Part shown: positions 3,840-43,907 of the stretch, in pieces
How the letters are laid out: the number at the start of each line of letters is the position of its first letter
How positions within the stretch are numbered: position 1 is the stretch's first letter
NCBI GenBank assembly: GCA_028281385.1
Contig: JANQJY010000004.1
Location: 8,141-72,140, forward strand
Reading direction: 5' to 3'
Origin: Rickettsiales bacterium
Lineage (GTDB): Bacteria > Pseudomonadota > Alphaproteobacteria > Rickettsiales > UBA3002
Length of the DNA stretch: 64,000 nt
Notes under the pieces: generated by a model
The model's input: the letters and a program-made list of their open reading frames with translations, nothing else
What the model was told of the DNA's origin: nothing
The model's database searches: none
Position numbers and translations under genes: made by a program

Positions 3840-5124
3840 GGTTTTCTCCTGATTGAGTGGGCTGCATGCGCCAGAGCATGAATGCAGCGGTTAATTTTAT
3901 GGCACAGGGAATAGCGGCGTAGGTGAGGCTTAATGTCCAGAGTGCCTCACGGCTATTTATTTGTCCTGCCTGGAATCCCGACCAGTCCAGAAGAGGAAAT
4001 ACAATGGCTGAAGCGACAGCCAGCACTGTCTTGGCCAGGAAAGCAAAGACGCCAAATTGTAAAGAGGCATGCTGTTCCTGTTGTCCGGCATGAATATGAT
4101 CGGCAAGGATGGAAGGGGGAAGGGCCAGATCCGCTCCGAAAGCGATGCCCGATAGCACACAAATCACCGCATACTGCCAGATATCGCCATTCCCCAGAAA
4201 ATACGCCCAGAAGAATGTCGCCACCGCAAGACACATGGCCATTATCCATGCATGGTATTTATTCCACCTGCGGCTTGCGAACTGCCAAAGCGGCATACCA
4301 GCAGCCCCGGAGAGGAAGTAAAGTGCGAGAAAGAGACCTGTATGGCTTTCTGCGCCCAGGCGATCCCGGATAAAGAACAGGACTAGTACCGCCGGAATGC
4401 TGGAAGCCAGCATGCTGATGCCGTAGATAATAAAGAAGCGCCGGGTATAGGAGGATATGGCTTTTAAAGAGGTCAGGATCGATTCTTTCCTATGCACTGA
4501 AGGGGTAGTCTGATCGTCAAAATATCTGCGATACCAGGTAAGGAATGTAATGATGCCAATGACGACCAGAAACACCAGTACTCCACTGACCCAAAGGAAG
4601 GTGTCCATCTTCGTCATGTTTTGCATCAATATGGCCGGCAGCAGTACTGCCAGCAGCAGTCCTGCCAGCCCGAAAGCTTCACGGAAGGCTGTAATACGTG
4701 TCTTCTGATGACTGTCTCTGGTCCACAGCCCTCCTGCGGTATTCAGGTTAATACTGAGCGTGCTGAACGCAGTAGTCGCCAACAGCATCATGAATGCAAA
4801 CCAGACCAGAGTGCCCTGTTGAAGAATGGGTTGGAATAAACCGGTAAAACTCAGCACCAATACCAGAGCTGCCATCAGCATAATCAGGAGACGTTTATGT
4901 GAAAAACGATCGCTGAGTCTGCCGATAAGCGGGTCCTGTATGGCATCAATAAATCTCAGAAACAGCAGGGCAAGACCGATGGAGGACAGAGACAGTTGAA
5001 ATTCTGTGGTATAGAAATCCGGCGCATGCACATACAGAGGCATTCCGGCAAATGCGATGGGGAAGGCGATGAACCCATAGTGCAGAAGAGCGTTACGCGG
5101 TAATGATGCGTCCTTATGCTTCAT
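3790..5124 (-). CDS. MFS transporter (GPH-like)
   Basis: 444 aa and about 12 hydrophobic segments. The RLSDRF motif lies after TM2, as in the sugar/GPH-type MFS D-R-x-G-R-R-like loop. Its 3' end overlaps the DUF3833 gene by 50 nt. Confidence 0.75.
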   Translation of the reverse strand: MKHKDASLPRNALLHYGFIAFPIAFAGMPLYVHAPDFYTTEFQLSLSSIGLALLFLRFIDAIQDPLIGRLSDRFSHKRLLIMLMAALVLVLSFTGLFQPILQQGTLVWFAFMMLLATTAFSTLSINLNTAGGLWTRDSHQKTRITAFREAFGLAGLLLAVLLPAILMQNMTKMDTFLWVSGVLVFLVVIGIITFLTWYRRYFDDQTTPSVHRKESILTSLKAISSYTRRFFIIYGISMLASSIPAVLVLFFIRDRLGAESHTGLFLALYFLSGAAGMPLWQFASRRWNKYHAWIMAMCLAVATFFWAYFLGNGDIWQYAVICVLSGIAFGADLALPPSILADHIHAGQQEQHASLQFGVFAFLAKTVLAVASAIVFPLLDWSGFQAGQINSREALWTLSLTYAAIPCAIKLTAAFMLWRMQPTQSGENHAQNTHPIADRSRHHV

Positions 5125-5633
5125 TGGATTCCCAGCAGTTTCCGGCGCAGGCCGGGCTCGGATGTGTTTTCAGCCAGCCAGATGTTGAAGAATTTCTCTG
5201 CGAATCCAGCGTCTTGAATCTGACCGATGTTTTTGTTTCCATGATAGAATCGTGTAGGGCTGCCGGGGGTGTAAATGCCGGTTAGCCGGGTGCCGTTCGT
5301 AACATTCGGGAATATGGTCTTCATTTGCGAATACCAGCCTGCCAGCCTGACTTCATCGGTAAAGCCCTGCTGCCTGATTTCGTGGGCGGAACGGTCGGCG
5401 ATGTCCTCTCCATCAATGGAGCGGAGATAATGTAATTTCAACGCAAAGGGCTGGTCTGGTCTCCAGGTGCCACCGGGAGCATAGAGGGTTGCTTCATAGA
5501 CATCCCAGAATGCATAGCTTAAGGTGCCCGAACCGACGACGGGAAATTCGGAACGATAGTCTTGCGTTCCGTCCTGTGCTTCTGCATCGGCATGAATGAT
5601 CAGAGAAAACAATAATACGGCAAGTTTAAGCAT
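5121..5633 (-). CDS. chalcone isomerase-like family protein (periplasmic)
   Basis: Signal peptide MLKLAVLLFSLIIHADA. YAFWDVYEATLYAP and LKLHYLRSI blocks are typical of bacterial CHI-like proteins in this gene cluster. 4-nt start/stop overlap with the neighbouring gene. Confidence 0.6.
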   Translation of the reverse strand: MLKLAVLLFSLIIHADAEAQDGTQDYRSEFPVVGSGTLSYAFWDVYEATLYAPGGTWRPDQPFALKLHYLRSIDGEDIADRSAHEIRQQGFTDEVRLAGWYSQMKTIFPNVTNGTRLTGIYTPGSPTRFYHGNKNIGQIQDAGFAEKFFNIWLAENTSEPGLRRKLLGIQ

Positions 5634-6882
5634 GTTGTAACTCCATTTGGATTACATCGGTTCTTCCCACAGCGAAACTGGCAATGCATGATGCCAGGTA
5701 AAATTGCCAAATGCGGATAAAGGCTTCATCAAACCCTAACGCACGGACGTCTGACAGTCTGGATTCAAACGTATGCAACCAGTATGTCAATGTCGTTGTA
5801 TAGTCCTTACCGAAGGCATGGCAGTCGGTTATGCGAAGACCGGCACGTTCTGCTTCCTGCCGGAAACGCATGGGAGTGGGCAGCATTCCTCCGGGGAAGA
5901 TAAAGCTGCGTATCATGTCTCCTCCCTTGCGGTAGCGCTCGAAATATTGATCGCCGATAGTAATCGTCTGGATGACGGCTTTACCTCTTCGCGTTAACAG
6001 GGATTGCAATTTATTGAAATATAGCGGCCAGAATTTTTCCCCGACAGCCTCGAACATCTCTATGGAAATGATATGATCATATGTACCTTTCTGGGACCGG
6101 TAATCTTCGATTACAATCTCGGCATGATTGCCCAGGCGCTTTTTTGCATAGGCATGCTGCTGCTCGGAGAGTGTGATGCCTTTTACAGAAAAATCATACT
6201 TTTCGATGGCGCGTTCGGCCAGACCGCCCCAGCCACAGCCTATCTCCAGTAAGTTGCCCGTGCGTGCATCCAGCCTTTCGAGCATTCGATCATACTTATT
6301 GTGTTGTGCCTGCTCCAGTGACTCCGTTTCGTGATGAAAAAGCGCAGAGGAATAACTCATGCCCGGGTCAAGCCATAGGTTGTAGAACTCATTGCCCAGA
6401 TCATAATGCGCATGAATATTTCTCCGGCTCCCTTTCAGCGTATTACGGGTAAAGATATAGAAAAACCGGCTTGCTACCCGCGACAGCATGTTGCCATATA
6501 TATAATTATTTAACGCGTGTGTGTTCTGAAGACCCACTAGAAACAGACGGGTTAAATCCTCGGAATCCCACCAACCATCGCGGTAAGCTTCTGCCAGGCC
6601 TATATCACCCTTGGAGGCAAAGGCAGGAATAGTACGCCAGTCATGAATATGGAAATGAGCATTAATTCCAGGAGTTTTTCCATGAAACACATGCTTTTTG
6701 CCATCAGGGGTGATGACCACCATCGAGCCATATTCCAAATGTTCTAAGGTACGTAAGAATTTGTCTGTGATCGAGTATTGCAGCATGGTTGTTTTCCTAT
6801 ATCCAACTGTCTTTAGCATACATGTACCGACTAACCCCCGCCTTACCTGTTCATTACATTTTGGTAAAGTGATGCGTGACAC
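5626..6882 (-). CDS. cyclopropane-fatty-acyl-phospholipid synthase family SAM-dependent methyltransferase
   Basis: HYDLGNEFYNLWLD, SAM motif I LLEIGCGWGGLA, and IEMFEAVG. An alternative start at Met33 (6786, MLQYSITDKF) is possible. Confidence 0.85.
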   Translation of the reverse strand: MSRITLPKCNEQVRRGLVGTCMLKTVGYRKTTMLQYSITDKFLRTLEHLEYGSMVVITPDGKKHVFHGKTPGINAHFHIHDWRTIPAFASKGDIGLAEAYRDGWWDSEDLTRLFLVGLQNTHALNNYIYGNMLSRVASRFFYIFTRNTLKGSRRNIHAHYDLGNEFYNLWLDPGMSYSSALFHHETESLEQAQHNKYDRMLERLDARTGNLLEIGCGWGGLAERAIEKYDFSVKGITLSEQQHAYAKKRLGNHAEIVIEDYRSQKGTYDHIISIEMFEAVGEKFWPLYFNKLQSLLTRRGKAVIQTITIGDQYFERYRKGGDMIRSFIFPGGMLPTPMRFRQEAERAGLRITDCHAFGKDYTTTLTYWLHTFESRLSDVRALGFDEAFIRIWQFYLASCIASFAVGRTDVIQMELQHA

Positions 6883-11212: not shown

Positions 11213-13018
11213 ATGACAACCGACATCACGAACATCCGTAATTTCTCGATCATTGCACATATCGACCACGGCAAGAGCACACTGGCGGACCGGCTGATCC
11301 AGCAATGTGGAGCGGTTGAGGAGCGTGAGCTGGGCGAGCAGATGCTCGATAATATGGAGCTAGAGCGCGAGCGCGGCATTACCATCAAATCGCAGACGGT
11401 ACGGCTGGAATACAAAGCCAAAGACGGGCAAACTTACATTCTTAATCTGATGGATACGCCGGGCCATGTCGATTTTACCTATGAGGTCAGCCGTTGTCTG
11501 TCGGCCTGTGAAGGTGCGCTGCTGGTGGTCGATGCGGCGCAGGGTGTGGAGGCGCAGACGCTGGCCAATGTCTATCAGGCAATCGAGCAGGATCTCGAGA
11601 TCATTCCGGTACTCAACAAGATCGATCTGCCGGCGGCCGAGCCAGATCGGGTAAAAGAGCAGATCGAGGATGTGATCGGCATTGATGCGAGTGATGCGTT
11701 AATGGTCTCGGCCAAAACCGGACTGGGCATTGAAGAGCTGCTCAAAGCGATTGTCCAACGCCTGCCGGCACCCAAGTCACCGGAGCAGGACCCGCTCAAA
11801 GCGCTGCTCATCGATAGCTGGTATGATACCTATCTCGGTGTCATTATTCTGGTGCGGGTGTATGAGGGCGAACTGCAGAAGGGCCGGAAAATCCGCTTTA
11901 TGAATGCGGGTGTGACGCAGGACGTCAATCAGGTCGGGGTGTTTACGCCGAAGACGCAAGAAGTGGCGTCGCTGGGACCGGGCGAGGTCGGCTATATCAT
12001 CACTGGCATCAAACAGGTGGCCGATACCAAGGTCGGCGATACGATCACGGAAGAGAAAAATCAAACGCCGGAGCCGCTGCCGGGATTCAAACCGGTGCAG
12101 CCGGTGGTGTTCTGCGGCATCTACCCGACCGATAACGGCCAGTATGATCATCTGCGCGATTCGCTGTCGAAGCTGCATCTGAACGATGCGAGTTTTCTCT
12201 ATGAACCGGAAAGTTCTACTGCTTTGGGGCTGGGTTTTCGTTGCGGTTTTCTCGGGCTGTTGCATCTGGAGATTATTCAGGAGCGTCTGGAGCGCGAATA
12301 TGACGTTGATCTGATTACCACGGCGCCGAGCGTGAGCTATCAGCTGACCATGACCGATGGGGCCGAAATGGAACTGCATAATCCGACCGACTACCCTGAT
12401 CCGGTCAAGGTGGCGGAGATTCGTGAGCCGTGGATTCGCGCCACCATCATGGTGCCCGATGATTATCTGGGCAATGTCCTGTCGCTTTGTACCGAAAAGC
12501 GCGGGGTGCAGGAGAACCTTACCTATGTCGGCAGCCGGGCGATGGCGGTCTACAGGTTGCCGCTCAATGAAGTGGTGTTTGATTTTTACGACCGGTTGAA
12601 AAGCTGCTCGAAAGGCTATGCATCGTTTGATTATGAGATGGCTGGCTATGAGGTGGGCGATCTGGTCAAGCTGTCGATCTTGGTCAATGGTGAGCCGGTC
12701 GATGCGCTGGCGCTGATGGTGCACCGTTCTCAGGCCGAGCAGCGAGGCCGGGCGCTGTGTGCGAAGTTGAAAGATTTGATCCCCAAACATCTGTTCAAAA
12801 TTCCGATTCAGGCGGCAATCGGCGGCAAGATCATCGCGCGCGAGACGATTTCGGCGATGCGCAAGGACGTGACCGCGAAATGTTATGGTGGTGATATTAC
12901 CCGAAAACGCAAACTGCTGGAGAAGCAGAAGAAGGGTAAGAAAAAGATGCGCTCGATCGGCAATGTCGACATTCCGCAAAGCGCGTTTATTGCTGCGCTC
13001 AAAATGGGTGATGAGTAA
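11213..13018 (+). CDS. lepA: elongation factor 4 (LepA)
   Basis: [30 protein letters not shown]..., [13 protein letters not shown], and C-terminal [40 protein letters not shown]. Collinear with E. coli LepA over its full length. Start moved to ATG 11213; the track used an upstream TTG. Confidence 0.97.
12960..13016 (+). repeat. copy A of a 57-bp direct repeat (the live 3' end of lepA)
   Basis: GCAATGTCGACATTCCGCAAAGCGCGTTTATTGCTGCGCTCAAAATGGGTGATGAGT. It recurs at 14037 and 15117 in the same orientation. Confidence 0.9.
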
Positions 13019-13051
13019 ATCATATAAACTGTCTGTAGGGTACTTAGCTTG

Positions 13052-13813
13052 CTACGGCACCAGTTCCCAATAGAGTCCACAATGATTGACAGTCTCTGTT
13101 AGGTTATATTCCAACCCCGTGCCGGTCGTACAATCCACTGCTGTACCAAGTCCATGTGCGATGACCTTGCCGCTGGCGGGCAAACCGTCATCTTTTTTCG
13201 TATCCATATTCCACGCTTCTTCCGGAGTAAATACACCTAGATTGTCGTTAAATCCGCTACTCACATTAAATATGTGTGGTTGTGCGATTGTCATCGCCAG
13301 ATAGATCGATGAGGTTAGCACTTCATGTGCGTTGGGGATAGCGCCATTGCCGCTAGCCGAATTATGCCATGGTCCGGACACAAACATCCCTTTGCTTTCT
13401 GCTGCGGGTACGCGTGGATAGCCTTGTCCTAAAATGGCGGTGCCATCATAATTACCCCCCAACAACCCAGCCTGGTTCAGCTGAATAAAAAATTGCGGAC
13501 GTTCGCCATCAAAATACCAATTGTCTGGGGTTGTAAAACTACCTCCATGTGCTCCACCAATCACTTGAATTGTGCCATCGCCATTGCCATCGAGTGCGGT
13601 GGGCCAGAAATTACTGGCGTTTCGTAAATCGCCGGGCCAGCCGAAATAGCGGTCACGAAACGTATGCATGGCGGCGATATAGGTTTCTGGTGTTGTAATT
13701 GTTTTGCGCAACTCCGCATTACGTATGAGGTTTTGCCCGGTGAGAATGCCGCCGGTCAGCAAACCGAGGATCACCAGAACAATACTTAATTCAACTAACG
13801 AAAAACCACGCAT
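13052..13813 (-). CDS. prepilin-type N-terminal cleavage/methylation domain protein (type IV pilin / pseudopilin-like), 253 aa
   Basis: MRG|FSLVELSIVLVILGLLTGGILTG is a class III signal with Glu+5. C-terminal Cys pair DCTTGTGLEYNLTETVNHCGLYW (pilin D-region-like loop). Start set at the Met preceded by GGGAGA. Confidence 0.85.
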   Translation of the reverse strand: MRGFSLVELSIVLVILGLLTGGILTGQNLIRNAELRKTITTPETYIAAMHTFRDRYFGWPGDLRNASNFWPTALDGNGDGTIQVIGGAHGGSFTTPDNWYFDGERPQFFIQLNQAGLLGGNYDGTAILGQGYPRVPAAESKGMFVSGPWHNSASGNGAIPNAHEVLTSSIYLAMTIAQPHIFNVSSGFNDNLGVFTPEEAWNMDTKKDDGLPASGKVIAHGLGTAVDCTTGTGLEYNLTETVNHCGLYWELVP

Positions 13814-13990
13814 GATACTTCTCCCTTCGCTGGTGGACGGGGAGTTCATAAACCTTCAAACAGAGAGGTCCCGCTGGTCTTTAGGCAAGCCCTGGACATG
13901 CACCAACGGCTCCCCGACCATGGGAAGATCGAGGAGTATGAATAACGGTCATACCAACCGCTGTTTGAAGGGGTTATGACGCCCCGCGAT
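13814..13990 (-). ncRNA. candidate structured 5' leader (cis-regulatory RNA) of pilin-like gene 1
   Basis: 11-bp closing helix (plus coordinates 13853..13863 with 13961..13971) enclosing three conserved helices. The invariant 3' tail GAACUCCCCGUCCACCA can pair with the SD GGGAGA. Covariation with copy 2 (see findings). Confidence 0.5.
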
Positions 13991-14036
13991 AATCATAATC
14001 ACCGCAACATTATTCTAACAAACTCATGATAAAGAA

Positions 14037-14093
14037 GCAATGTCGATATTCCGCAAAGCGCGTTTATTGCTGCGCTCAAGATGAGTGATGAGT
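14037..14093 (+). repeat. copy A' of the lepA 3'-end repeat (3 mismatches to A)
   Basis: GCAATGTCGATATTCCGCAAAGCGCGTTTATTGCTGCGCTCAAGATGAGTGATGAGT. It reads [19 protein letters not shown] in the lepA frame. Confidence 0.9.
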
Positions 14094-14137
14094 CGTGAGA
14101 TTTACACGGCGTGCTGTAAAGAAGGCGCCACTATGAT

Positions 14138-14899
14138 TTACGGTACAAGTTCCCAATATAATCCGCAATGTTCAATGGTTTCCGTCAGATTATATTCTAA
14201 GCCCGTAGCGATGGTACAGTCTTCGGCACCACCCAGACTACCATGCGCAACGACTTTGCCACTGGCGGGCAAACCATCATCCTTCTTGACATCCATATTC
14301 CAGGCCTCTTCAGGTAAAAACAGACCGTATGTATCGTTAAACAAGCCATTAACATTAAACCAAGCGGGTTGTGCAATCGTCATCGCCAGATAGATGGACG
14401 CAGATAGGGAGCTTACTGCATCGGGAATGGCTCCATTTCCTCCGGTGTCGGGATACCACTTCCCGGTAACAAACATGCCTTTACCGGAAGCAGCCGGCAC
14501 ACGGGGGTAGCCCTGTCCCAATACCGCAGAACCGTCATAACTGCCTTCCAGCAACCCGGCCAGATTCAGCTGAATGAAAAATTGCGGGCGTTCTCCATCA
14601 AAAAATGGATTGTCAGGCAACGTATAAGAAGTAGCATATACACTAGCCGCTTCGATCTGCCCATCACCATCGCCGTCCACTGCTGTCGGCCAGAAGTCGC
14701 TGGCATTGCGTAAATCACCTGGCCAACCGAAATATTGATCACGAAAAATATGCATGGCCGAGATATATTCCTCTGCCACTGTCATGGTTTTACGCAACTC
14801 TGCTGCGCGGATAAGATTCTGGCCGGTTAAAATCCCACCCGTCAACAAGCCAAGAATAACCAATACAATACTTAATTCGACTAATGAAAAACCACGCAT
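14138..14899 (-). CDS. prepilin-type N-terminal cleavage/methylation domain protein, paralog 2, 253 aa
   Basis: MRG|FSLVELSIVLVILGLLTGGILTG is identical to paralog 1. Roughly 70 percent identity overall by eye. Same C-terminal DCT...HCGLYWELVP. Confidence 0.85.
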   Translation of the reverse strand: MRGFSLVELSIVLVILGLLTGGILTGQNLIRAAELRKTMTVAEEYISAMHIFRDQYFGWPGDLRNASDFWPTAVDGDGDGQIEAASVYATSYTLPDNPFFDGERPQFFIQLNLAGLLEGSYDGSAVLGQGYPRVPAASGKGMFVTGKWYPDTGGNGAIPDAVSSLSASIYLAMTIAQPAWFNVNGLFNDTYGLFLPEEAWNMDVKKDDGLPASGKVVAHGSLGGAEDCTIATGLEYNLTETIEHCGLYWELVP

Positions 14900-15072
14900 A
14901 ATCAATCTCCCTCAGTTGGTGGACGGGGAGTTCGAAAAACCTACTCTAAGAAAGGTCTCCGCAGGCCTTTGGGTAACACCTTGGACATACGCCAGCGGCT
15001 CCCCGGCCATAAGGTCGAGGAGTATGAATGACGGTCATACGAACCGCTTAGAGTAAAGGATTTCGACACCCC
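14900..15072 (-). ncRNA. candidate structured 5' leader of pilin-like gene 2
   Basis: Same helices as copy 1 with compensatory changes. Closing helix UACUCUAAG/CUUAGAGUA (plus coordinates 15047..15055 with 14942..14950). Confidence 0.5.
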
Positions 15073-15116
15073 AGGATTTACATCCTGTTGTAGCATAGCA
15101 AGTTCAGGGCGCAAAA

Positions 15117-15173
15117 GCAATGTCGACATTCCGCAAAGTGCGTTCATCGCCGCGCTCAAGATGAGTGATGAGT
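15117..15173 (+). repeat. copy A'' of the lepA 3'-end repeat (6 mismatches to A), followed in frame by a stop
   Basis: GCAATGTCGACATTCCGCAAAGTGCGTTCATCGCCGCGCTCAAGATGAGTGATGAGT+AA encodes [18 protein letters not shown]-stop. Four of the six differences from A are synonymous third-position changes. Confidence 0.9.
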
Positions 15174-15270
15174 AAGCTATTTCATTTTAACTTCACTGAA
15201 TTGTCATATGGTTGACTGATTTCTTAGGCTATAATTCCGTCATCCTTAACGTTTATGAAAGGGATGTAAC

Positions 15271-16071
15271 GTGGCAGAGAAAAAAGGTGGGGAACGGCCC
15301 TATACAGGACGACCTGGCTCCTTCCCGGGTGGAGGAAATGGGAGCGGAAGAGGCGGGCGTAAAACGCCCTATGGAACTGGTCCCGGACCCGGCCGTTCCG
15401 CCCACCCTCAAGGGGGAAGAGAAGATCCTAATATAGTGCAACAAAAAATTGGAAAATTAAAAGCTTCGGGCCGTCATGAGGGAAGTGCACCAAGACGGGT
15501 GGGTAGTGGGCCACAAGAGAAAAAAGAACGTCCCAAAGTAGACGCTCTGTTGATGCGGGATGTGGCTGACAGTTATATCGATTGGGTGATTGCACAAATG
15601 GTATCGGAGGATAGGACTGTGCACGATAGATATGAAGCCAGTTATGAAGGGGCAAAACAAACTCTTAAAGAAGCGGCATTGGCGTCTAAAACTGTTTTTG
15701 CAGGGGACCATAAAGCGTTTCTAGAACTACTTTCTGAAGAAGGATTTGCAGCAGGTATTGAGGCGGCTGCCAGCGAGCATGTAGACAGGCTGCAGGAATG
15801 GGATGAATATTTTAGTCAATCTGTCAATGCAAGCATTCAGGCGATGATTGGCGAGGGTGATATGTTAAGGTTCGTAAAAGGAAAAATGAGAGACATAGGG
15901 GACATATCATCGCCATCCAATGAAACAGTTAAAGCTATTGCTGGTAACGTGCGGTCAAAGTTGGAGGGAGTGGCGACCTCCCATCATGTCATGGCGGCCG
16001 GTGTATCGGAGGAGATATTGCCCAGGCTGTTGAAGGTGATAAGTAATAAGGGTCCCCAACAAAATAGATAA
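15271..16071 (+). CDS. hypothetical protein with Gly/Pro/Arg-rich disordered N-terminus
   Basis: 266-aa ORF with a GTG start 7 nt after AAAGGGA. The first ~95 residues are low complexity (GGERPYTGRPGSFPGGGNGSGRGGRKTPYGTGPGPGR). No motif recognised. Confidence 0.5.
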   Translation: MAEKKGGERPYTGRPGSFPGGGNGSGRGGRKTPYGTGPGPGRSAHPQGGREDPNIVQQKIGKLKASGRHEGSAPRRVGSGPQEKKERPKVDALLMRDVADSYIDWVIAQMVSEDRTVHDRYEASYEGAKQTLKEAALASKTVFAGDHKAFLELLSEEGFAAGIEAAASEHVDRLQEWDEYFSQSVNASIQAMIGEGDMLRFVKGKMRDIGDISSPSNETVKAIAGNVRSKLEGVATSHHVMAAGVSEEILPRLLKVISNKGPQQNR

Positions 16072-16123
16072 AATCCTTAAGAAATTAACTTTTTCGTAAC
16101 CTTCTCTTGCTACGCTTGGTGGC

Positions 16124-17092
16124 ATGAACTGGCAAGCGAGCAATAATCTGTTGGATACACTGGGCATTCTGCCGCCGGTGCAATGGTGCTTTAAGGGATT
16201 GAATCCGGACGGTACGCGCAACGAACTGCTCCTGCGGCGTGTGAAGCAGGGGAATGAAGCGGAAGTCGAGGAAAAAGACCACACCGAATTTGAGACGCAT
16301 TATAAGGGTAAATTCAGCCATGCGGCGTCATTGTGCGAGCATATTCATGATCGCTATGCCGAACGGGTGCTGGGAGAATGGGGCGAAGGCGTGACATACA
16401 GCCTGCTGGAGCAGATGGTCGAGGTTGCCAGACATCAGGCTGCATTATTGGAATTATTTATTCCCAAAGGAAAAATCGAAATCTATGCGCCAGAATTCCG
16501 CTATTTTCAGCCGCAATATATCGCGGCGAACTATACGCTGAAACTCCATGCCGATGATATGCTGAAGCATAAGAGAGGGAATCTGTTTTCCCGATTGATT
16601 GCCCAGCATCTCGATTATCCTTACGCACCGGGCGAGCGGCGTTTTTCCACCTCTAAATTATTTGATTTGTGTTTCGCTGCAGAAAAGCTGATTGCTCCGA
16701 AAGGACTGGCGGCGCATATTGATACATCGCTGGAAAAGGCTGGCATGTATCAATCGGCACGCCATGAAACAGACGAGCTGGAACAGGTGCGCGCCCTGCT
16801 GGGCGGCGCTCCGGCATCGATTGCCAATTCCTATACACGCGTGTTGCAGCGCGAACGGTTTGCGCATCTGGTTGAAGCTTTATATACCGCATCCTCCGTA
16901 GCGAAGAAAAAGTCACCGATTCTGACGCATTACAAGCAATTGATCGAGGTGGATTTACTTTCTCACAAACAACGACAGTATAAAGATTATCCGTCAAAAA
17001 CCGTGGACGAAATGGCCGAAGCGCTCCACGTCCCACTCATGATAATTTTCGAGGCAGGCAGGCATGAACGAATTACAGACAACACTGGATAA
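16124..17092 (+). CDS. hypothetical protein
   Basis: 322-aa ORF, no recognisable motif, same strand as its neighbours. Confidence 0.5.
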   Translation: MNWQASNNLLDTLGILPPVQWCFKGLNPDGTRNELLLRRVKQGNEAEVEEKDHTEFETHYKGKFSHAASLCEHIHDRYAERVLGEWGEGVTYSLLEQMVEVARHQAALLELFIPKGKIEIYAPEFRYFQPQYIAANYTLKLHADDMLKHKRGNLFSRLIAQHLDYPYAPGERRFSTSKLFDLCFAAEKLIAPKGLAAHIDTSLEKAGMYQSARHETDELEQVRALLGGAPASIANSYTRVLQRERFAHLVEALYTASSVAKKKSPILTHYKQLIEVDLLSHKQRQYKDYPSKTVDEMAEALHVPLMIIFEAGRHERITDNTG

Positions 17093-17352: not shown

Positions 17353-18348
17353 ATGACGACGAATTGGGCAGATTCGGTGAGGGGAGAGAAATCTTCCAAA
17401 GTCAAACAGACGGATTTTATCAGCAACGATCAATTGAAGGCATTGATAAAAGAAATTAAGTGTTTAGGAAAAGAGGCTCAACAATGGAGAAATGAACCGG
17501 AGAACCTTACTACAGAAGGTAAATTATTTCATGAGATGAAACGGGAAAAAAGCCCTTTAAATGGAGAATGGCGCGAATCTCCGGTAACACAAAAAGATAA
17601 AGAAGTACATGAAAAGCTCAGTGCATTTTTGCAGGCGCTGACTCCCAATATTCCAATTGTCAGTGAAGAGGAAGAGGATGAAAATAAAAATCGTCAACTG
17701 CATCAAAATCCTACTTATTGGGTCATGGATCCGATTGACGGTACCAGTAACTTTATTAGCGACAAGAAGCAATATGGTGTGTTGCTGGGGTTGGTGCATG
17801 ATGGCCGTCCGATTATGGGCATCACCTATTATCCCGAATATGACATGTTATGTTACACTAAAGGTGGTAAAGCCTTCAGAGAAAAAGACGGAAACACAGA
17901 AGAGTTACATATTGGTGAACCATTTCGGTGTGATAGCAGCGAAGGACCGCAGGTGCTGCGCATTACCCCTCGTGTTAAAAAAGCAAAAGCACAACCTGCT
18001 GCGTTAACAAAAAGAAAAATTGACACAGAATCTTTGAGGCCTGAAGCGATAGACTATGAGGATTATCCGGACGAAATGATTTTGCTGGATGGCAAGGCGC
18101 AACTGGGTAGCATTAATAATGGCGGGTATGAATGGGATATCGCGGGGAGACAAGCGATTTTTGAAGCAGCAGGCGGGCTGTTTGTCGATAAGAAAACGGG
18201 ATGGGCTCCCCAGTTTGGCCGTTCTAATCCGCGAGGAGATCTATTTGTAGACCCCATGTGGACGGGGCATCCCAAGACGCTTGAAGCGCTGAAATTATTG
18301 CAGGAAACGGAAAGAACACACAGTGCGGGTGGTCGTTCTCACACATAA
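17353..18348 (+). CDS. inositol monophosphatase / CysQ-family phosphatase with ~100-aa N-terminal extension
   Basis: Metal-binding motifs PIVSEEEE, WVMDPIDGTSNFI and WDIAGRQAIFEAAGG are in the canonical order for the IMPase superfamily. Confidence 0.75.
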   Translation: MTTNWADSVRGEKSSKVKQTDFISNDQLKALIKEIKCLGKEAQQWRNEPENLTTEGKLFHEMKREKSPLNGEWRESPVTQKDKEVHEKLSAFLQALTPNIPIVSEEEEDENKNRQLHQNPTYWVMDPIDGTSNFISDKKQYGVLLGLVHDGRPIMGITYYPEYDMLCYTKGGKAFREKDGNTEELHIGEPFRCDSSEGPQVLRITPRVKKAKAQPAALTKRKIDTESLRPEAIDYEDYPDEMILLDGKAQLGSINNGGYEWDIAGRQAIFEAAGGLFVDKKTGWAPQFGRSNPRGDLFVDPMWTGHPKTLEALKLLQETERTHSAGGRSHT

Positions 18349-18399
18349 TCTGCTTGCAAAGCTGCGTCAGTCTCGTTAATTCATTCGCATACCATCTGT

Positions 18400-18475
18400 G
18401 GGGCATTAGCTCAGTTGGTAGAGCGCTACAATGGCATTGTAGAGGTCAGCGGTTCGACTCCGCTATGCTCCACCA
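18400..18475 (+). tRNA. tRNA-Ala (anticodon GGC)
   Basis: GGGGCATTAGCTCAGTTGGTAGAGCGCTACAATGGCATTGTAGAGGTCAGCGGTTCGACTCCGCTATGCTCCACCA folds into a full cloverleaf. G3:U70 alanine identity pair, anticodon loop AUGGCAU, encoded CCA. Confidence 0.95.
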
Positions 18476-18509
18476 TTTCATACCTAAACGGACCACAATA
18501 GAACTGTCT

Positions 18510-19436
18510 TCAGGGAATTTTCTGGTAAGATCTAAGGCTTCTAAACATTTTCAGGGTAATTATACCTTTCCATTCTTGCTTTGCTTGTTCCCACTCACTG
18601 GTAAAACTATTATTCCACGACCAAAACGGTAGCCATGCACCATCCTTTTGTTGTTGTGTGAGTTCATAATCAATTTGTTTTTGGATTTCATCATGTAAAA
18701 CACCTGCCAACGGTGAGTGAGAAAAGGGGGCAAACCATAGGGGTTTCGCACAATAATCTGACCATTTTTGTGTGTCTATCTCCACAACTAGCAAAACAGT
18801 TTTCTTTAGCTTTTCCAGAACTTCCTTACTTAGGTGCTCAGGAAAATGACGTGCTTCTACTAGCCAAAGGTAACATAGGATGTCATGCATCTCCATTTCA
18901 TCAGATAACATATGCAGGCATTCCATCGCCATATCAGTAAAGGTTGCCAATAATATTGGGTCAATCAAGGTATGGTAATGCCAAAAGTGACCAATAATCT
19001 CTGCCCCTGCATTGGCCTGGAATTTTTCTGAATAGGTTAGCCCGTGTTCCGGTTTAAAGTGCCACCAGGGTGCATGAGGGTAATCATTTACTTGTGTTGG
19101 TACATTGTGCCAAGCGTTACGATCAGGATCGTATTGCCGTAATAAATACATTATGGCTTTTCGTACCAGCATATTTTCAGGAGGTGCATTAATTTCACGC
19201 AATACCTGCAAGGCGATGCTCGTAGCCAGAACAGAGCTTGCTGGCAAACGAAAGTCTGGCTCAAGAGCATGCCCAAAACCACCATCATCGTTTTGGAACA
19301 ATGTAAGCTCACCTAAAACAGTATTGGCATCACCACACTCAAAATGATACTCATACAATGCTCTCTCTAAAGGTCGAGCAAAACTGTAAATAAAATTTCT
19401 GGCTTTGGTGATAGAAACTTTTTGCATTTTATTCAT
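18510..19436 (-). CDS. hypothetical protein, possibly alpha/alpha-toroid (prenyltransferase/terpene-cyclase-like repeat) fold
   Basis: Repeated aromatic/DGG motifs: FQNDDGGFGHALEPDF and QQKDGAWLPFWSW. The assignment is tentative. Confidence 0.4.
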   Translation of the reverse strand: MNKMQKVSITKARNFIYSFARPLERALYEYHFECGDANTVLGELTLFQNDDGGFGHALEPDFRLPASSVLATSIALQVLREINAPPENMLVRKAIMYLLRQYDPDRNAWHNVPTQVNDYPHAPWWHFKPEHGLTYSEKFQANAGAEIIGHFWHYHTLIDPILLATFTDMAMECLHMLSDEMEMHDILCYLWLVEARHFPEHLSKEVLEKLKKTVLLVVEIDTQKWSDYCAKPLWFAPFSHSPLAGVLHDEIQKQIDYELTQQQKDGAWLPFWSWNNSFTSEWEQAKQEWKGIITLKMFRSLRSYQKIP

Positions 19437-19578
19437 GCCAATGAAACCCCTTGCTATATGCGTTATTATATGTGACCTCTAAGACGTTACCAAACAAAAA
19501 TCTTTCTATTAAAGTGAGTTGAATGATTGATTAGTAAGGCCAAGCGTTGTAGATCTTCTACAAACTCTTGAGCGGAAA

Positions 19579-19608
19579 GGTTCGAGGTTAGTCCTTTTAG
19601 CTCCACCA
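19579..19608 (+). other. degenerate tRNA 3'-end-like sequence (possible decayed att repeat)
   Basis: GGTTCGAGGTTAGTCCTTTTAGCTCCACCA, compared with the tRNA-Ala 3' end GGTTCGACTCCGCTATGCTCCACCA. Same orientation, 1.1 kb downstream of the intact tRNA. Confidence 0.3.
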
Positions 19609-19677
19609 CTTTGTTCAAACAGTTTTTTAACTGGATTTCATTGGCTTGCGTGTTCGCTAAAAGATGAAATAGTTTCC

Positions 19678-20220
19678 TTAAGATTTTGTTTTGCTTTTTT
19701 TAAGGCTTACTTTTTGTATATGCTCCGGACAAAGAAGCTCTACGGAAATACCTTTCTTTTTAAGTACTTCTTTAAATTTCCACCAGTGATGATCAGAAGC
19801 CGCAGCAATCGGTGGCTTCATGGGGTGAGTGTTTGCAACCGCTACAAATTTTTTATCACTTTTATCAAAACCATTCAATTCTGCGCAATTCGGAAACTCT
19901 GCATAGTTATCATCGGTTTGTGTAATAGTGACTCTATCTTCCAGCGGAAAATGCCACTGATTATCATGAACCCATTTCATGAAAGCATCTCCTAGACCAG
20001 GTTGCCCGCTCATAGACAACTGTTTTCTATACTCGTCAAAAATTTCACCGCCAGCGTCGACAACAAGCTTCAATTCTTCATTTAAAATCTTTTTGATTTT
20101 TTCTGCACAACTCAGAGCGCAATCCACCATATTATCAGGAAGTTCTGCAATATTCGTGGCACTATTTGCTATTTTGGGGACATTTGTGTCCACTACATAT
20201 TTGGCGGTCGCTTTCCTCAT
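19678..20220 (-). CDS. PIN-domain nuclease-like protein
   Basis: N-terminal KYVVDTNVP (first acidic residue on beta1) and later FDKSDKKFVAVANT (D-x-x-D..A-x-A motif typical of PIN). 9-nt gap after the ATPase gene. Confidence 0.55.
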   Translation of the reverse strand: MRKATAKYVVDTNVPKIANSATNIAELPDNMVDCALSCAEKIKKILNEELKLVVDAGGEIFDEYRKQLSMSGQPGLGDAFMKWVHDNQWHFPLEDRVTITQTDDNYAEFPNCAELNGFDKSDKKFVAVANTHPMKPPIAAASDHHWWKFKEVLKKKGISVELLCPEHIQKVSLKKSKTKS

Positions 20221-20228
20221 TGTGAATT

Positions 20229-21602
20229 CTACTTTTTATTCATTTGTGCTTTGCGTTTTTTTAATGCCGCTACAGTTTGGTCTGCAATATCGCCAGCAAC
20301 ATCACCGAAGAAGTTTTCTGGCCAGTTCAAAACATTGCCAAACAGATCAATCTTCAACTCTTCCAGCTTTGGCGGATAAGCCGCAACATTAGCAAAATAT
20401 GCGGATACCTTGTCTTTGGAGACGTTATCTTCAGCAATTCTTTTTTGTAACCTTCTGAGAAAATGCTCGGAATGAGTTTCAACAATGAGTTGGATATTTC
20501 TATTTTCCCCGTACTCTTTAGAATTAATTACATCAATAAATACATCTGCTAAAGCAGCTTGGGCGCTAGGATGTAAGTGTATTTCAGGCTGTTCCATTAT
20601 AATAACAGAATTCTTTGGAGCATAAAAACATTGAACAAGCACTGGCAATACTTGTGATATACCAAAGCCTACGTCCGGCAGATCAACGTAATCTTTGCTA
20701 CCTTTTGTGCGCACTTTTACATCGTATTCATGGCGCCCTTCCGCGATACGTTTGACCTTAAACTCATCGATTAGCCCCATCTCTTTGAGCTTTGAGGCAA
20801 TGATTTCTTCAAACGGTTTGGTTGGTCTTTTGTGGCCTAAACCAATTCTTCTTTTTTTTGCGGCCAACAATGCAGGAATAGTATCTTCGCCAGCATTTCC
20901 CACACTCTCTGGCTCAGTGCCTGTCCATTTGTATAAGCGGGCAGGTTTTTCTCTCATCGGGCCGAGATAAAAGACCGATCTGAATAATTTCTCATGCTGA
21001 AGATTTAATTGTTGAACGAAGTCTGCATTTTGATGATACGCAACAACTTCTTCGGGAAAAGCATAAAACTTATAGGGCGCCTTGAATGGCCAAGCCCTTT
21101 GAAGCTGACGTACTAAACTATATCCGGTAGAATCAACTTTATACTCATGTTTATCTTCGGCACGTTTCATAGTTACGGATATACCTGCAACATCATACTT
21201 AAAATGCTCAACTATAAGTGTGTTTTGATTTTTGGTATCCAAACTAACTTCTGCGTCAAAAGACATATCGTTGCCACTATACGTGGTGCTGGATTTTGTA
21301 TCTTTAAATTTGAGTATAGGCTCGAAATCCCATTGATATTGAAAAGATATTTTATTTTCAGGATCACGATGAAAAACCATTTCCTGAAAAGAACCTAACT
21401 CTACTGCAGAGTTCCCATCCCCAGGAAAAAACACTGCTTTACGCTCAGAGGATAACGCTGTTTGCTTAAGCATCATCAAAAACTGGCCAATACTTGATTT
21501 TCCAGAACTATTCGTGCCAAAGAAAAGCGTTATTGGAGACATTGTGATACTTCCAGTATCGCTCCATCCTTTGAAATTCTTGATGTGTAAATTTTTTAGC
21601 AT
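20229..21602 (-). CDS. ABC/SMC-type AAA ATPase (AAA15-like with DUF3696-like C-terminus)
   Basis: LHIKNFKGW...ITLFFGTNSSGKSS (Walker A), IIMEQPEIHLHP (Walker B/D-loop), VETHSEHFLRRLQ (H-loop). The C-terminal VSAYFAN...LNWPENFF tail resembles DUF3696. Confidence 0.75.
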   Translation of the reverse strand: MLKNLHIKNFKGWSDTGSITMSPITLFFGTNSSGKSSIGQFLMMLKQTALSSERKAVFFPGDGNSAVELGSFQEMVFHRDPENKISFQYQWDFEPILKFKDTKSSTTYSGNDMSFDAEVSLDTKNQNTLIVEHFKYDVAGISVTMKRAEDKHEYKVDSTGYSLVRQLQRAWPFKAPYKFYAFPEEVVAYHQNADFVQQLNLQHEKLFRSVFYLGPMREKPARLYKWTGTEPESVGNAGEDTIPALLAAKKRRIGLGHKRPTKPFEEIIASKLKEMGLIDEFKVKRIAEGRHEYDVKVRTKGSKDYVDLPDVGFGISQVLPVLVQCFYAPKNSVIIMEQPEIHLHPSAQAALADVFIDVINSKEYGENRNIQLIVETHSEHFLRRLQKRIAEDNVSKDKVSAYFANVAAYPPKLEELKIDLFGNVLNWPENFFGDVAGDIADQTVAALKKRKAQMNKK

Positions 21603-36181: not shown

Positions 36182-40159
<3,978 letters not shown>

Positions 40160-42384: not shown

Positions 42385-43779
42385 TTAAACGTCTTTAATC
42401 TTCAATTCAGATAAACGTCTGTAGAGTGTGGGTTTGGCCATACCTAATGACTTTGCCGCTTGCGTGACATTGCCGTTATGATGCGATAATGCAAAGCGAA
42501 TCGCCTGTTCCTCAATTGCCTTAAGTGGCAGGAGAGAACCATCCGTCTGCACGAATGGAAGCGTACCGTTATCGGTTAGTGCGTAAGGGCTGTCAGGCGT
42601 ATGAGTGTAATGCATCATCACCGCTTGCACATCCTCTGCACCAATCATACTGTGTTCACTCGTGACCATTATGCGCTGAATCGTGTTTTCCAATTCACGA
42701 ATATTACCTGGCCAGGAATGATTGCAGAGCACGTCGATGGCATGGGTTGAGATTTCTTTCATCGGTATGTCATAGTGTGCAACAAACCGTTCCATGAAAA
42801 ACGTAATGAACGCTGGAATGTCTTGAACGCGTTCATGCAAAGTTGGTATATGCAGTGGTAAGACATTAAGTCGGAAAAAGAGATCTTCACGAAAATGCCC
42901 AGAAGACACCTCGTCTTTTAACGTGCGGTGCGTAGCCGATATGATGCGTACATTTACAGGGACTGATTTGCCAGCGCCAACAGGCTCTACTTCTTTTTCC
43001 TGCAAAACACGAAGTAATTTCGCCTGCACATCCAATGGTAATTCGCCAATTTCATCAAGAAAAAGGGTACCACCTTCTGCTTCACGGAACTTACCAAGCG
43101 CATCAGTGATTGCGCCGGTGAACGAGCCTTTAACGTGGCCAAACAGTGTACTTTCAACCAATTGCGCAGGAATTGCGGCGCAGTTAATAGCGATGAAAGG
43201 GTGACAACAGCGGATACTTTCACCATGAATTGCGCGAGCCAACACTTCTTTACCCACCCCGGTTTCCCCGGTAATTAAGATTGGCAAATCACTTTGCGCA
43301 CCCCTGCGTGCGATCTTTACCAGTGATTTAAGACCGCTATCATATCCAATCATATCACTGAATTGCGTCTCGCCGGATTCTTTGCGTTTATAGCGATGCA
43401 GTTCACGTGACATGGCACGCATTTTTAATACATGAAGAATCGATACAGCCAATCGCTCTGGCTCGGCCGGCTTTGGCAGAAAATCGATCGCGCCCATTTT
43501 CATAGCACGTACGGCGTGATCAATTTCATCGCTACTTGTTAACATAATAACGGGCAGGTCAGGATAACGTTCTGATAATTCGCTGAGCGTTTCCAGGCCA
43601 TCTTTTTTTGGCATGTGAACATCCATGATGACTACATCCGGCATTTGGCGTTTAACGATGTTTAAGGCCTGTTTGCCATCTTCAGCATCGATGACATCGT
43701 AGCCAAAGCGTTTTTTAATCAGTGAGCCAATCATAATACGCTGTGTATCTTCATCTTCGACTATCAGAACTGTAGGCAT
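42385..43779 (-). CDS. sigma-54-dependent Fis-family response regulator (NtrC type)
   Basis: REC (VLIVEDEDTQR...DVHMPKKDG); AAA+ domain with Walker A GETGVGKE and GSFTGA (GAFTGA variant); C-terminal Fis HTH AAKSLGMAKPTLYRRL. Start at Met24 (GAGAGGGGA upstream). Confidence 0.9.
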   Translation of the reverse strand: MPTVLIVEDEDTQRIMIGSLIKKRFGYDVIDAEDGKQALNIVKRQMPDVVIMDVHMPKKDGLETLSELSERYPDLPVIMLTSSDEIDHAVRAMKMGAIDFLPKPAEPERLAVSILHVLKMRAMSRELHRYKRKESGETQFSDMIGYDSGLKSLVKIARRGAQSDLPILITGETGVGKEVLARAIHGESIRCCHPFIAINCAAIPAQLVESTLFGHVKGSFTGAITDALGKFREAEGGTLFLDEIGELPLDVQAKLLRVLQEKEVEPVGAGKSVPVNVRIISATHRTLKDEVSSGHFREDLFFRLNVLPLHIPTLHERVQDIPAFITFFMERFVAHYDIPMKEISTHAIDVLCNHSWPGNIRELENTIQRIMVTSEHSMIGAEDVQAVMMHYTHTPDSPYALTDNGTLPFVQTDGSLLPLKAIEEQAIRFALSHHNGNVTQAAKSLGMAKPTLYRRLSELKIKDV

Positions 43780-43829
43780 ATCCCCTCTCGTTAGATGCGT
43801 TTTATTATGATAAAAGTATAACGAATATG

Positions 43830-43846
43830 TTATCAAAATTGAACGC
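43830..43846. promoter_or_regulatory. 17-nt motif TTATCAAAATTGAACGC (candidate enhancer/UAS), copy 2
   Basis: Lies in the divergent region between the activator gene and the porin operon, ~70 nt upstream of the plus-strand -24 element. Confidence 0.4.
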
Positions 43847-43907
43847 ATTTATGTGTTTTATCGAAAGAAGAATAACCAACACACTGTTTTATATGCATTC
43901 ATAAAAA

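Follow-up and report, generated by a model that had tools for sequence, protein, structure and literature searches.

Copies of the lepA 3' end flank divergent pilin cassettes in a Rickettsiales bacterium and may serve as sites of cassette exchange

We analyzed a 64,000-nucleotide stretch of contig JANQJY010000004.1 (hereafter the window) from a metagenome-assembled genome (MAG) of a Rickettsiales bacterium (GCA_028281385.1), in which lepA, encoding elongation factor 4, is followed by two pilin gene cassettes that are bracketed by three direct copies of the end of lepA itself. This arrangement suggests that the lepA-end copies are sites where pilin cassettes could be gained, lost or swapped without harm to lepA. 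Our favored explanation, which we hold tentatively, is that an ancient integration footprint at the lepA 3' end has become a cassette array that is kept and reshuffled by homology-driven exchange.

The live lepA (11213..13018, plus strand) was recognized from the list of open reading frames (ORFs) and encodes 601 aa that are 100% identical to protein P0121; GTP_EFTU and LepA_C domains are present in its homologues. Its last 18 codons constitute repeat copy A (12960..13016, plus strand, with the lepA stop codon at 13016-13018), and displaced copies are found at 14037..14093 (A', three mismatches to A) and 15117..15173 (A'', the outermost, six mismatches to A, with a stop codon at 15173-15175), both on the plus strand, so that all three are direct repeats spaced by 1077 and 1080 bp. 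A degenerate consensus of the three copies, allowing up to three mismatches, matched exactly three sites in the 64 kb and none in 100 shuffled sequences. The coordinates, orientation, spacings and mismatch counts reported in the initial annotation of this DNA are confirmed. The copies are 89–95% identical and have sharp edges, while the spacers of the units between them can no longer be aligned. Each displaced copy can be read in the lepA frame to a stop, at the normal position or one codon later: A and A'' have TAA at the stop position, and A' has TCG there and TGA one codon later. For A'', the initial annotation had already described a copy in frame to its stop with a synonymous majority among its differences from A, and both points stand, but the count given, four of six, was too low; five of the six are synonymous third-position changes and the remaining one replaces Gly with Ser.

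The repeat copies of one genome differ less among themselves than from orthologous lepA ends, with tails reading MGDE or MSDE in the window and MDGD in both copies of the nearest relative (L005, see below). The last 19 lepA codons did not show unusual synonymous conservation between orthologues, so the similarity of the repeats is not explained by conservation of this kind. Despite its duplicated 3' ends, lepA is full length, as expected of a gene whose end is duplicated by an att-flanked island. The fold predicted for the 57-mer was no better than that of shuffled sequence (z-scores of 0.05 and 1.13 for the two strands). At the left edge of A (12962-12973) and A'' (15119-15130) lies a perfect 12-nt palindrome, AATGTCGACATT (codons N-V-D-I); A' has an imperfect version of it, and L005 does not conserve it.

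Between the repeats are two homologous units of 1020 and 1023 nt that are about 74% identical, each consisting, in order on the minus strand, of a poorly conserved spacer of ~45 nt, a leader of ~150 nt, a GGGAG ribosome-binding site, and a 253-aa gene. The two genes, pil1 (13052..13813, minus strand) and pil2 (14138..14899, minus strand), are convergent to lepA, and their products begin with MRG/FSLVELS, showing the short leader peptide, G/F-x-x-x-E motif and hydrophobic N-terminal helix that define the pilin superfamily. Both matched Pfam N_methyl as well as TIGR02532, the latter above its cutoff, in agreement with the earlier description of one convergent prepilin-like gene of 253 aa plus a conserved leader per unit. 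GspG and GspH models matched the N-terminus only and below their cutoffs. An AlphaFold2 model (pLDDT 91) contained a helix spanning residues 6–56, corresponding to the long N-terminal pilin helix, while the best Foldseek match of the head domain in the PDB was C. difficile PilA1, a weak one (E = 0.2, TM-score 0.34/0.59). The pilin family comprises 3669 homologues, mostly from Alphaproteobacteria or Rickettsiales-like MAGs and often several per genome, in which Cys228 is nearly invariant and Cys245 invariant.

The Pil1 and Pil2 proteins are 75–76% identical, somewhat more than the roughly 70% initially estimated, and are mutual best matches among 5.8 billion proteins, the next match being at 53%. 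At the nucleotide level, pS was 0.73, dS about 2.9 (saturated) and dN 0.18, and the first 30 codons differed at a single non-synonymous site, yet had a pS of 0.78. Given that synonymous sites are saturated while dN is only 0.18, the substitution pattern indicates that both genes are functional, under purifying selection, and anciently separated. Set against only 3–6 differences in the 57 nt of the repeats, this saturated divergence argues against recent amplification, and the near-identity along whole units that would mark recent tandem amplification was not found, with units ~74% identical and spacers unalignable. The objection to simple amplification raised in the initial annotation is therefore upheld. 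Fourfold-degenerate sites were 0.34 identical between pil1 and pil2 and 0.52 identical between the lepA genes of the window and L005. In GC content, both overall and at third codon positions (GC3), the pilin genes are typical of this genome, and a foreign origin based on composition was rejected.

The closest LepA relatives are 83–86% identical, and those LepA and pilin homologues with a named source come from uncultured Alphaproteobacteria or Rickettsiales. In the nearest of them, L005 (LepA 86%), the layout is the same with one cassette and two repeats: the lepA end (4553-4609) is followed by a convergent prepilin gene (4606-5367, 253 aa), a homologous leader (5391-5551, minus strand) and a second lepA-end copy (5603-5658). 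The start of the L005 repeat is within 2 nt of that in the window, at an Asn codon (AAT), and in both genomes the repeat ends at the stop codon. Identity of the L005 pilin to either window pilin is only 38–44%, and the leaders of the three cassettes are equidistant (72–76% identical); together with the divergence of pil1 and pil2, these values indicate that three or more old cassette lineages occupy this site across the two related genomes. In L010 and L011 (LepA 83%), lepA has a single end and no cassette, and is followed by one Iron_permease-family gene and then by a homologue of orf322 (16124..17092, plus strand), a clade-specific gene that provides a right-hand synteny anchor (tblastn identity of 49–50% to genes downstream of lepA in L005, L010, and L011). 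The site in L010 and L011 is hence unoccupied by a cassette yet not strictly empty, given the Iron_permease-family gene in the interval. In six more relatives (LepA 83–84%), a lone lepA end precedes unrelated genes of various kinds. Cassette number at this one site is 0, 1 or 2 across relatives, which supplies the cassette-free site and the copy-number variation that the initial annotation proposed to look for, with one cassette in L005 and none in L010 and L011.

The DNA just after lepA is different in nearly all relatives, with RidA-like, Iron_permease-family, HMGL-like or unknown ORFs in the intervals compared (window 13017-16123; L005 4610-6456; L010 9861-10596; and the region downstream of lepA in L006, L008, L009, L012, and L015). 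Because of this variation, the lepA 3' end can be regarded, on the gene order of these genomes, as a general breakpoint or plasticity zone in the clade. In the window, the same interval also contains orf266 (15271-16071, plus strand), which has a Gly/Pro/Arg-rich N-terminal third and a low GC3 (0.40), had no family match in Pfam or NCBIfam, and is absent at this position in L005 and L010. The pilin homologues P0003, P0004, and P0008 neither adjoin lepA nor are flanked by gene-end repeats. Another prepilin locus was present in L001 (4570-8028), from the same sample as L005, where two paralogous prepilin genes encoding 261 and 257 aa directly follow a GGDEF/EAL gene. A small helix-turn-helix (HTH) gene lies between them, and their N-terminal coding regions form direct repeats spaced by 1260 bp; this locus has no leader and no gene-end repeat.

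The displaced lepA-end copies carry substitutions of a coding type. We pooled the variable repeat sites over three genomes, namely the window, L005, and L134, the frame of the last being set by hand, and found 14 of 16 sites at third codon positions of the lepA frame, all 14 changes being synonymous or stop-preserving. A model that constrains the live copy alone and lets the others drift predicts ~46% of variable sites at third positions (P = 7e-4 for the observed excess). From this bias, we infer that the displaced copies behave as recent live lepA ends, or as copies of live ends, and not as decaying relics. The pattern further suggests that the repeats are recombinationally active and that recombination between them may be ongoing.

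L134 is a locus of a more distant lineage (MAG Rickettsiales bacterium C4_MAG_00014, JAIXQD010000033.1, 5650-5930), with three tandem lepA 3' ends at spacings of 79 and 126 nt and no gene between them. These copies include the stop codon and ~14 nt beyond it, all their differences from the live end are synonymous, a GC-rich hairpin follows each copy, and a 14-nt inverted repeat has one arm in the QSAF codons and the other immediately past the stop. A scan of GTDB genomes with a degenerate lepA-end pattern returned at least 119 loci; L134 was the sole informative one among the matches listed, which did not cover the window's own genome and its close relatives. A 30-nt exact match to the degenerate pattern, with an in-frame stop in that frame, was also found in two related phage contigs of IMG/VR (L139 88-117 and L140 1721-1750), and was judged a coincidence because it falls within a zinc-ribbon ORF of another frame, lepA flanks are missing, and the surrounding 8 kb contain no integrase. 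Likewise, A' can be viewed as a chimera that is of type A on its left and of type A'' on its right, and we rejected this as proof of one unequal crossover, given that ~19% of random patterns over the six informative sites yield at most one breakpoint and that the tree ((A',A''),A) fits equally well.

How could such a locus have formed? Both n + 1 repeats for n cassettes and homology that ends at the lepA stop are the footprint expected of an insertion that brings its own replacement gene end, as the initial annotation had proposed from the alternation of repeats and units in the window. A tandem duplication of a single lepA/pilin pair is disfavored because it would give n repeats for n genes. 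In our favored scenario, the original event would have been an insertion into the lepA 3' end that supplied a replacement end, and this event, or the capacity for it, would be common to L005. The present array would then consist of two self-contained expression cassettes, each with a promoter region, a leader RNA of ~150 nt and a 253-aa prepilin gene, and the repeats would have become portable recombination sites, such that exchange between any two of them could add, remove or swap a cassette while leaving lepA intact. Two different cassettes could come to lie in tandem if the left repeat in one allele recombined unequally with the right repeat in a second allele, a cassette could be lost through exchange within one chromosome, and gene conversion could keep the copies alike. 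Such exchange would presumably be homology-driven, through RecA-type unequal crossing-over and gene conversion, either within a lineage or between strains with different cassette alleles, and a dedicated recombinase would not be required once a locus of the form lepA, cassette, lepA end existed. We propose that the displaced copies look like coding sequence because every exchange leaves an intact lepA end. The similarity of copies within a genome, such as the MDGD tail of both L005 copies, agrees with repeated site-specific insertion no better than with homologous exchange or gene conversion.

Several points weigh against this explanation. The pilin-cassette layout occurs in two genomes only, and copy-number variation rests on three lineages. 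The seven variable repeat sites in the window can be accounted for by a simple tree no less readily than by a crossover, and so give no direct proof of a recombination event. Homologous recombination does not by itself account for how the lepA end was first duplicated, and 57 bp at 89–95% identity approaches the minimum for efficient RecA exchange. The search for recombinases described below covered 64 kb of a contig of at least 119 kb. Finally, lepA has a strong codon bias (GC3 of 0.67, compared with 0.46–0.47 for the pilin genes), which makes the comparison of lepA and pilin clocks a rough one and weakens the argument that the cassettes are older than the split of their hosts.

Among the alternatives, the one closest to the initial annotation is serial insertion of non-autonomous cassettes by a site-specific recombinase encoded elsewhere, with the lepA terminus acting as attB and each cassette carrying a replacement end. 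The n + 1 layout, homology to the exact stop codon and a repeat start within 2 nt in two genomes are what it predicts, as are relatives with 0, 1 or 2 cassettes, cassettes far more diverged than the repeats, and displaced copies with an in-frame stop and coding-like changes as if each had once been live; there is also a precedent in recombinase-less staphylococcal cassette chromosome (SCC) elements that form arrays at rlmH (10.1101/336396). Other findings count against it. None of the window's 48 ORFs of 90 aa or more matched an integrase, resolvase or transposase family of Pfam, and the window likewise lacked any Resolvase or Recombinase domain and any intI gene. As the initial annotation had noted, neither unit encodes a recombinase, the pilin gene being the sole ORF of each; its suggestion to search further for a recombinase or for additional copies of the 57-bp core could be followed within the window, where neither turned up beyond the three known copies. 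The 57-mer has no significant fold, and its palindrome AATGTCGACATT is not conserved in L005. A leader model found no other cassette in 490 kb of related DNA, the leader core was absent from JGI metagenome and IMG/VR contigs (see below), homologous pilins elsewhere lack gene-end repeats, and a search of 5.8 billion proteins placed nothing closer to pil1 or pil2 than the other member of the pair. We consider this explanation unlikely, if still worth keeping in play. The specific claim that the units are undescribed miniature mobile cassettes (~1 kb with promoter, riboswitch-like leader and pilin) inserted at the last 18 lepA codons by a recombinase acting in trans seems to us slightly more doubtful; if it holds, a translation-factor gene would form the basis of an integron-like or SCC-like system in uncultured Alphaproteobacteria.

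A purely vertical history, with one ancient insertion or duplication followed by in-place duplication, differential loss and conversion from the live end, without exchange between strains, would agree with pil1 and pil2 being mutual best matches at 75% with the next at 53%, with a cassette composition native to the genome, with the lineage-specific tails common to copies within a genome, and with L134, which shows that cargo-free tandem duplication of the lepA end can arise. We nevertheless judge it decidedly unlikely. Neither window pilin is an orthologue of the L005 pilin (38–44%) though the hosts are close, so that a vertical history needs at least three ancestral cassettes and reciprocal losses; the duplication boundary exactly at the stop codon would be a coincidence; and conversion would have had to be sustained on 57 nt alone while fourfold sites of lepA fell to 52% identity. 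We also considered whether two co-existing one-cassette strains, each like L005, could have been threaded in tandem through a common repeat during assembly, since the source is a MAG, the sole other example of the layout has one cassette, and linkage across A' has no independent confirmation: a Logan unitig (run SRR20820735, L141) matches window 12973-13922 exactly and breaks inside the stretch common to A and A'. Such a break is as expected from a true repeat at this place. Moreover, A, A', and A'' differ at 3–6 sites, and the longest run common to A and A'' is ~22 nt, below usual k-mer sizes; the protein clusters of LepA, Pil1, and Pil2 contain one sequence apiece, with no sign of a second strain; and a contig of 118.8 kb is atypical for a strain-mixed assembly, all of which makes a chimera improbable. 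Very improbable, in our view, is that the displaced copies are kept as DNA elements of the pilin promoters, for example as an upstream activator site. They do lie ~50 to 105 nt upstream of the leader start, and their left edge abuts a −35-like TTGC/TTGT, but 14 of 16 changes at third lepA-frame positions are not expected of a protein-binding DNA site, this 3-nt periodicity argues against conservation as promoter elements, and promoter-like matches were not commoner than in shuffled sequence (6 vs. 3.6 ± 2.0).

Elements that integrate into tRNA genes to form islands duplicate the 3' end of the gene. Integration into icd also duplicates its 3' end and leaves the ORF length unchanged (PMC3603311); for e14 in icd, as at lepA in the window, the gene end is duplicated without loss of the gene. 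The lepA gene is itself a described prophage target, that of Gifsy-1 in Salmonella (PMC3603311), which qualifies the remark in the initial annotation that no description of lepA as such a target was known, but Gifsy-1 inserts at the 5' end of lepA (PMC10100743). While e14 and Gifsy-1 are large and have their own integrase, the window contains 1-kb tandem cassettes without one. In architecture, SCC at rlmH is the nearest counterpart. SCC elements target the 3' end of rlmH, which remains intact, and n elements are accompanied by n + 1 direct repeats containing the gene end; these repeats are short integration-site sequences for Ccr serine recombinases, and the elements measure several kb to tens of kb. 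The window, with two units and three repeats, and L005, with one unit and two repeats, follow the same rule. SCC elements occur in tandem at staphylococcal rlmH (orfX), and some of them (pseudo-SCC) lack a recombinase (10.1101/336396). Unlike SCC, the locus described here has a 57-nt repeat, single-gene units of ~1 kb, lepA as its target and an alphaproteobacterial host, and no recombinase was found in the window, where the Ccr-type large serine recombinase and rlmH target that are hallmarks of SCC are both absent.

At the level of function, repeat-flanked pilin variation loci are closest. In Neisseria pilE/pilS (with its Sma/Cla repeat) and in the pilA allele groups of Pseudomonas, divergent pilins occupy one site between short conserved flanks and are subject to homology-driven exchange. 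The window likewise has divergent pilin genes at one chromosomal site with short conserved flanks. In contrast to these loci, both copies in the window are full-length, under purifying selection and equipped with their own leader, and are not silent partial cassettes, and the flanking repeat is a piece of a neighboring housekeeping gene. Integron cassettes resemble the window units in being ~1-kb single-gene units in arrays, bounded by recombination sites and without a recombinase inside, but here there is no attC-like folded imperfect palindrome and no intI in the window, and each cassette has its own leader and promoter-like region. We therefore do not class the locus with att-flanked islands, SCC, integrons or the pilin variation loci, as neither a recombinase nor an attC-type site of the kind that marks the mobile systems was found in the window.

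If the lepA-end copies are active exchange sites, they would provide a very compact way to vary a surface-filament subunit, in which a short piece of an essential-type neighboring gene serves as docking sequence and each rearrangement restores that gene. Target, cargo and the poorly known bacterial group would then all be new for the cassette-array principle of SCC, integrons and Neisseria pilin loci. A coding-type substitution pattern in copies outside the gene could also be a simple, general signature with which to find other active recombination sites of this type.

The leaders of the pilin genes form a second subject of interest. Leader RNA 1, within the 5' untranslated region of pil1 (13838..13986, minus strand), and leader RNA 2 (14924..15073, minus strand) were delineated by fold and by covariation across three sequences, the third being that of L005. 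On the pilin-sense strand, the predicted fold has a long closing stem around a multi-helix hairpin junction, with compensatory two-sided changes in 10 of 59 predicted pairs, a count from three sequences only; several invariant G-U pairs fix the strand as that of the pilin mRNA, and the L005 leader has an additional perfect hairpin inserted at one helix tip. In all three sequences, CUCCCC on the 3' strand of the closing stem has an alternative partner in the GGGAG ribosome-binding site (13820-13826 for leader 1). These alternative pairings suggest a translational switch, and the ~150-nt leader can be proposed as a new regulatory RNA or riboswitch controlling pilin translation. Short alternative folds of the leader and ribosome-binding site were no more stable than those of shuffled sequence. 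No Rfam family matched the leader at its gathering score, and only chance-level matches (E ≥ 1.4) appeared at a permissive threshold. A covariance model of the leader (R1) recovered only its three training sequences from the 490 kb of related DNA, pilin-homologue loci included, and the leader core AGTATGAATNACGGTCATAC had two unrelated chance matches only in JGI metagenome contigs and none in IMG/VR viral contigs.

Between A' and leader 1, the poorly conserved spacer (13987..14036, minus strand) contains one promoter-like site, TTGTTA-18-TATGAT (14021 to 13992), which is a match to consensus only; the region held six promoter-like matches in all, the count compared above with shuffled sequence. 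A sigma-54 promoter in the spacers upstream of the pilin genes was rejected, as the GG-N10-GC spacing was not observed by eye. Farther along the window, a large hybrid histidine kinase with MHYT, PilJ-N and GAF domains (36182-40159, minus strand) lies near a sigma-54-dependent response regulator of the NtrC/PilR type (42385-43848, minus strand), and both are possible regulators of pilus genes.

A further region (17353-21602) surrounds a tRNA-Ala(GGC) gene (18400-18475), which is followed by a stretch of low GC content (0.39–0.41, compared with 0.48 for the window). This stretch contains two genes without a family match and an AAA_15/AAA_21/DUF3696 ATPase, after which an HTH protein is encoded at normal GC content. 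The region is probably a small defense-type island at the tRNA gene, without an integrase.

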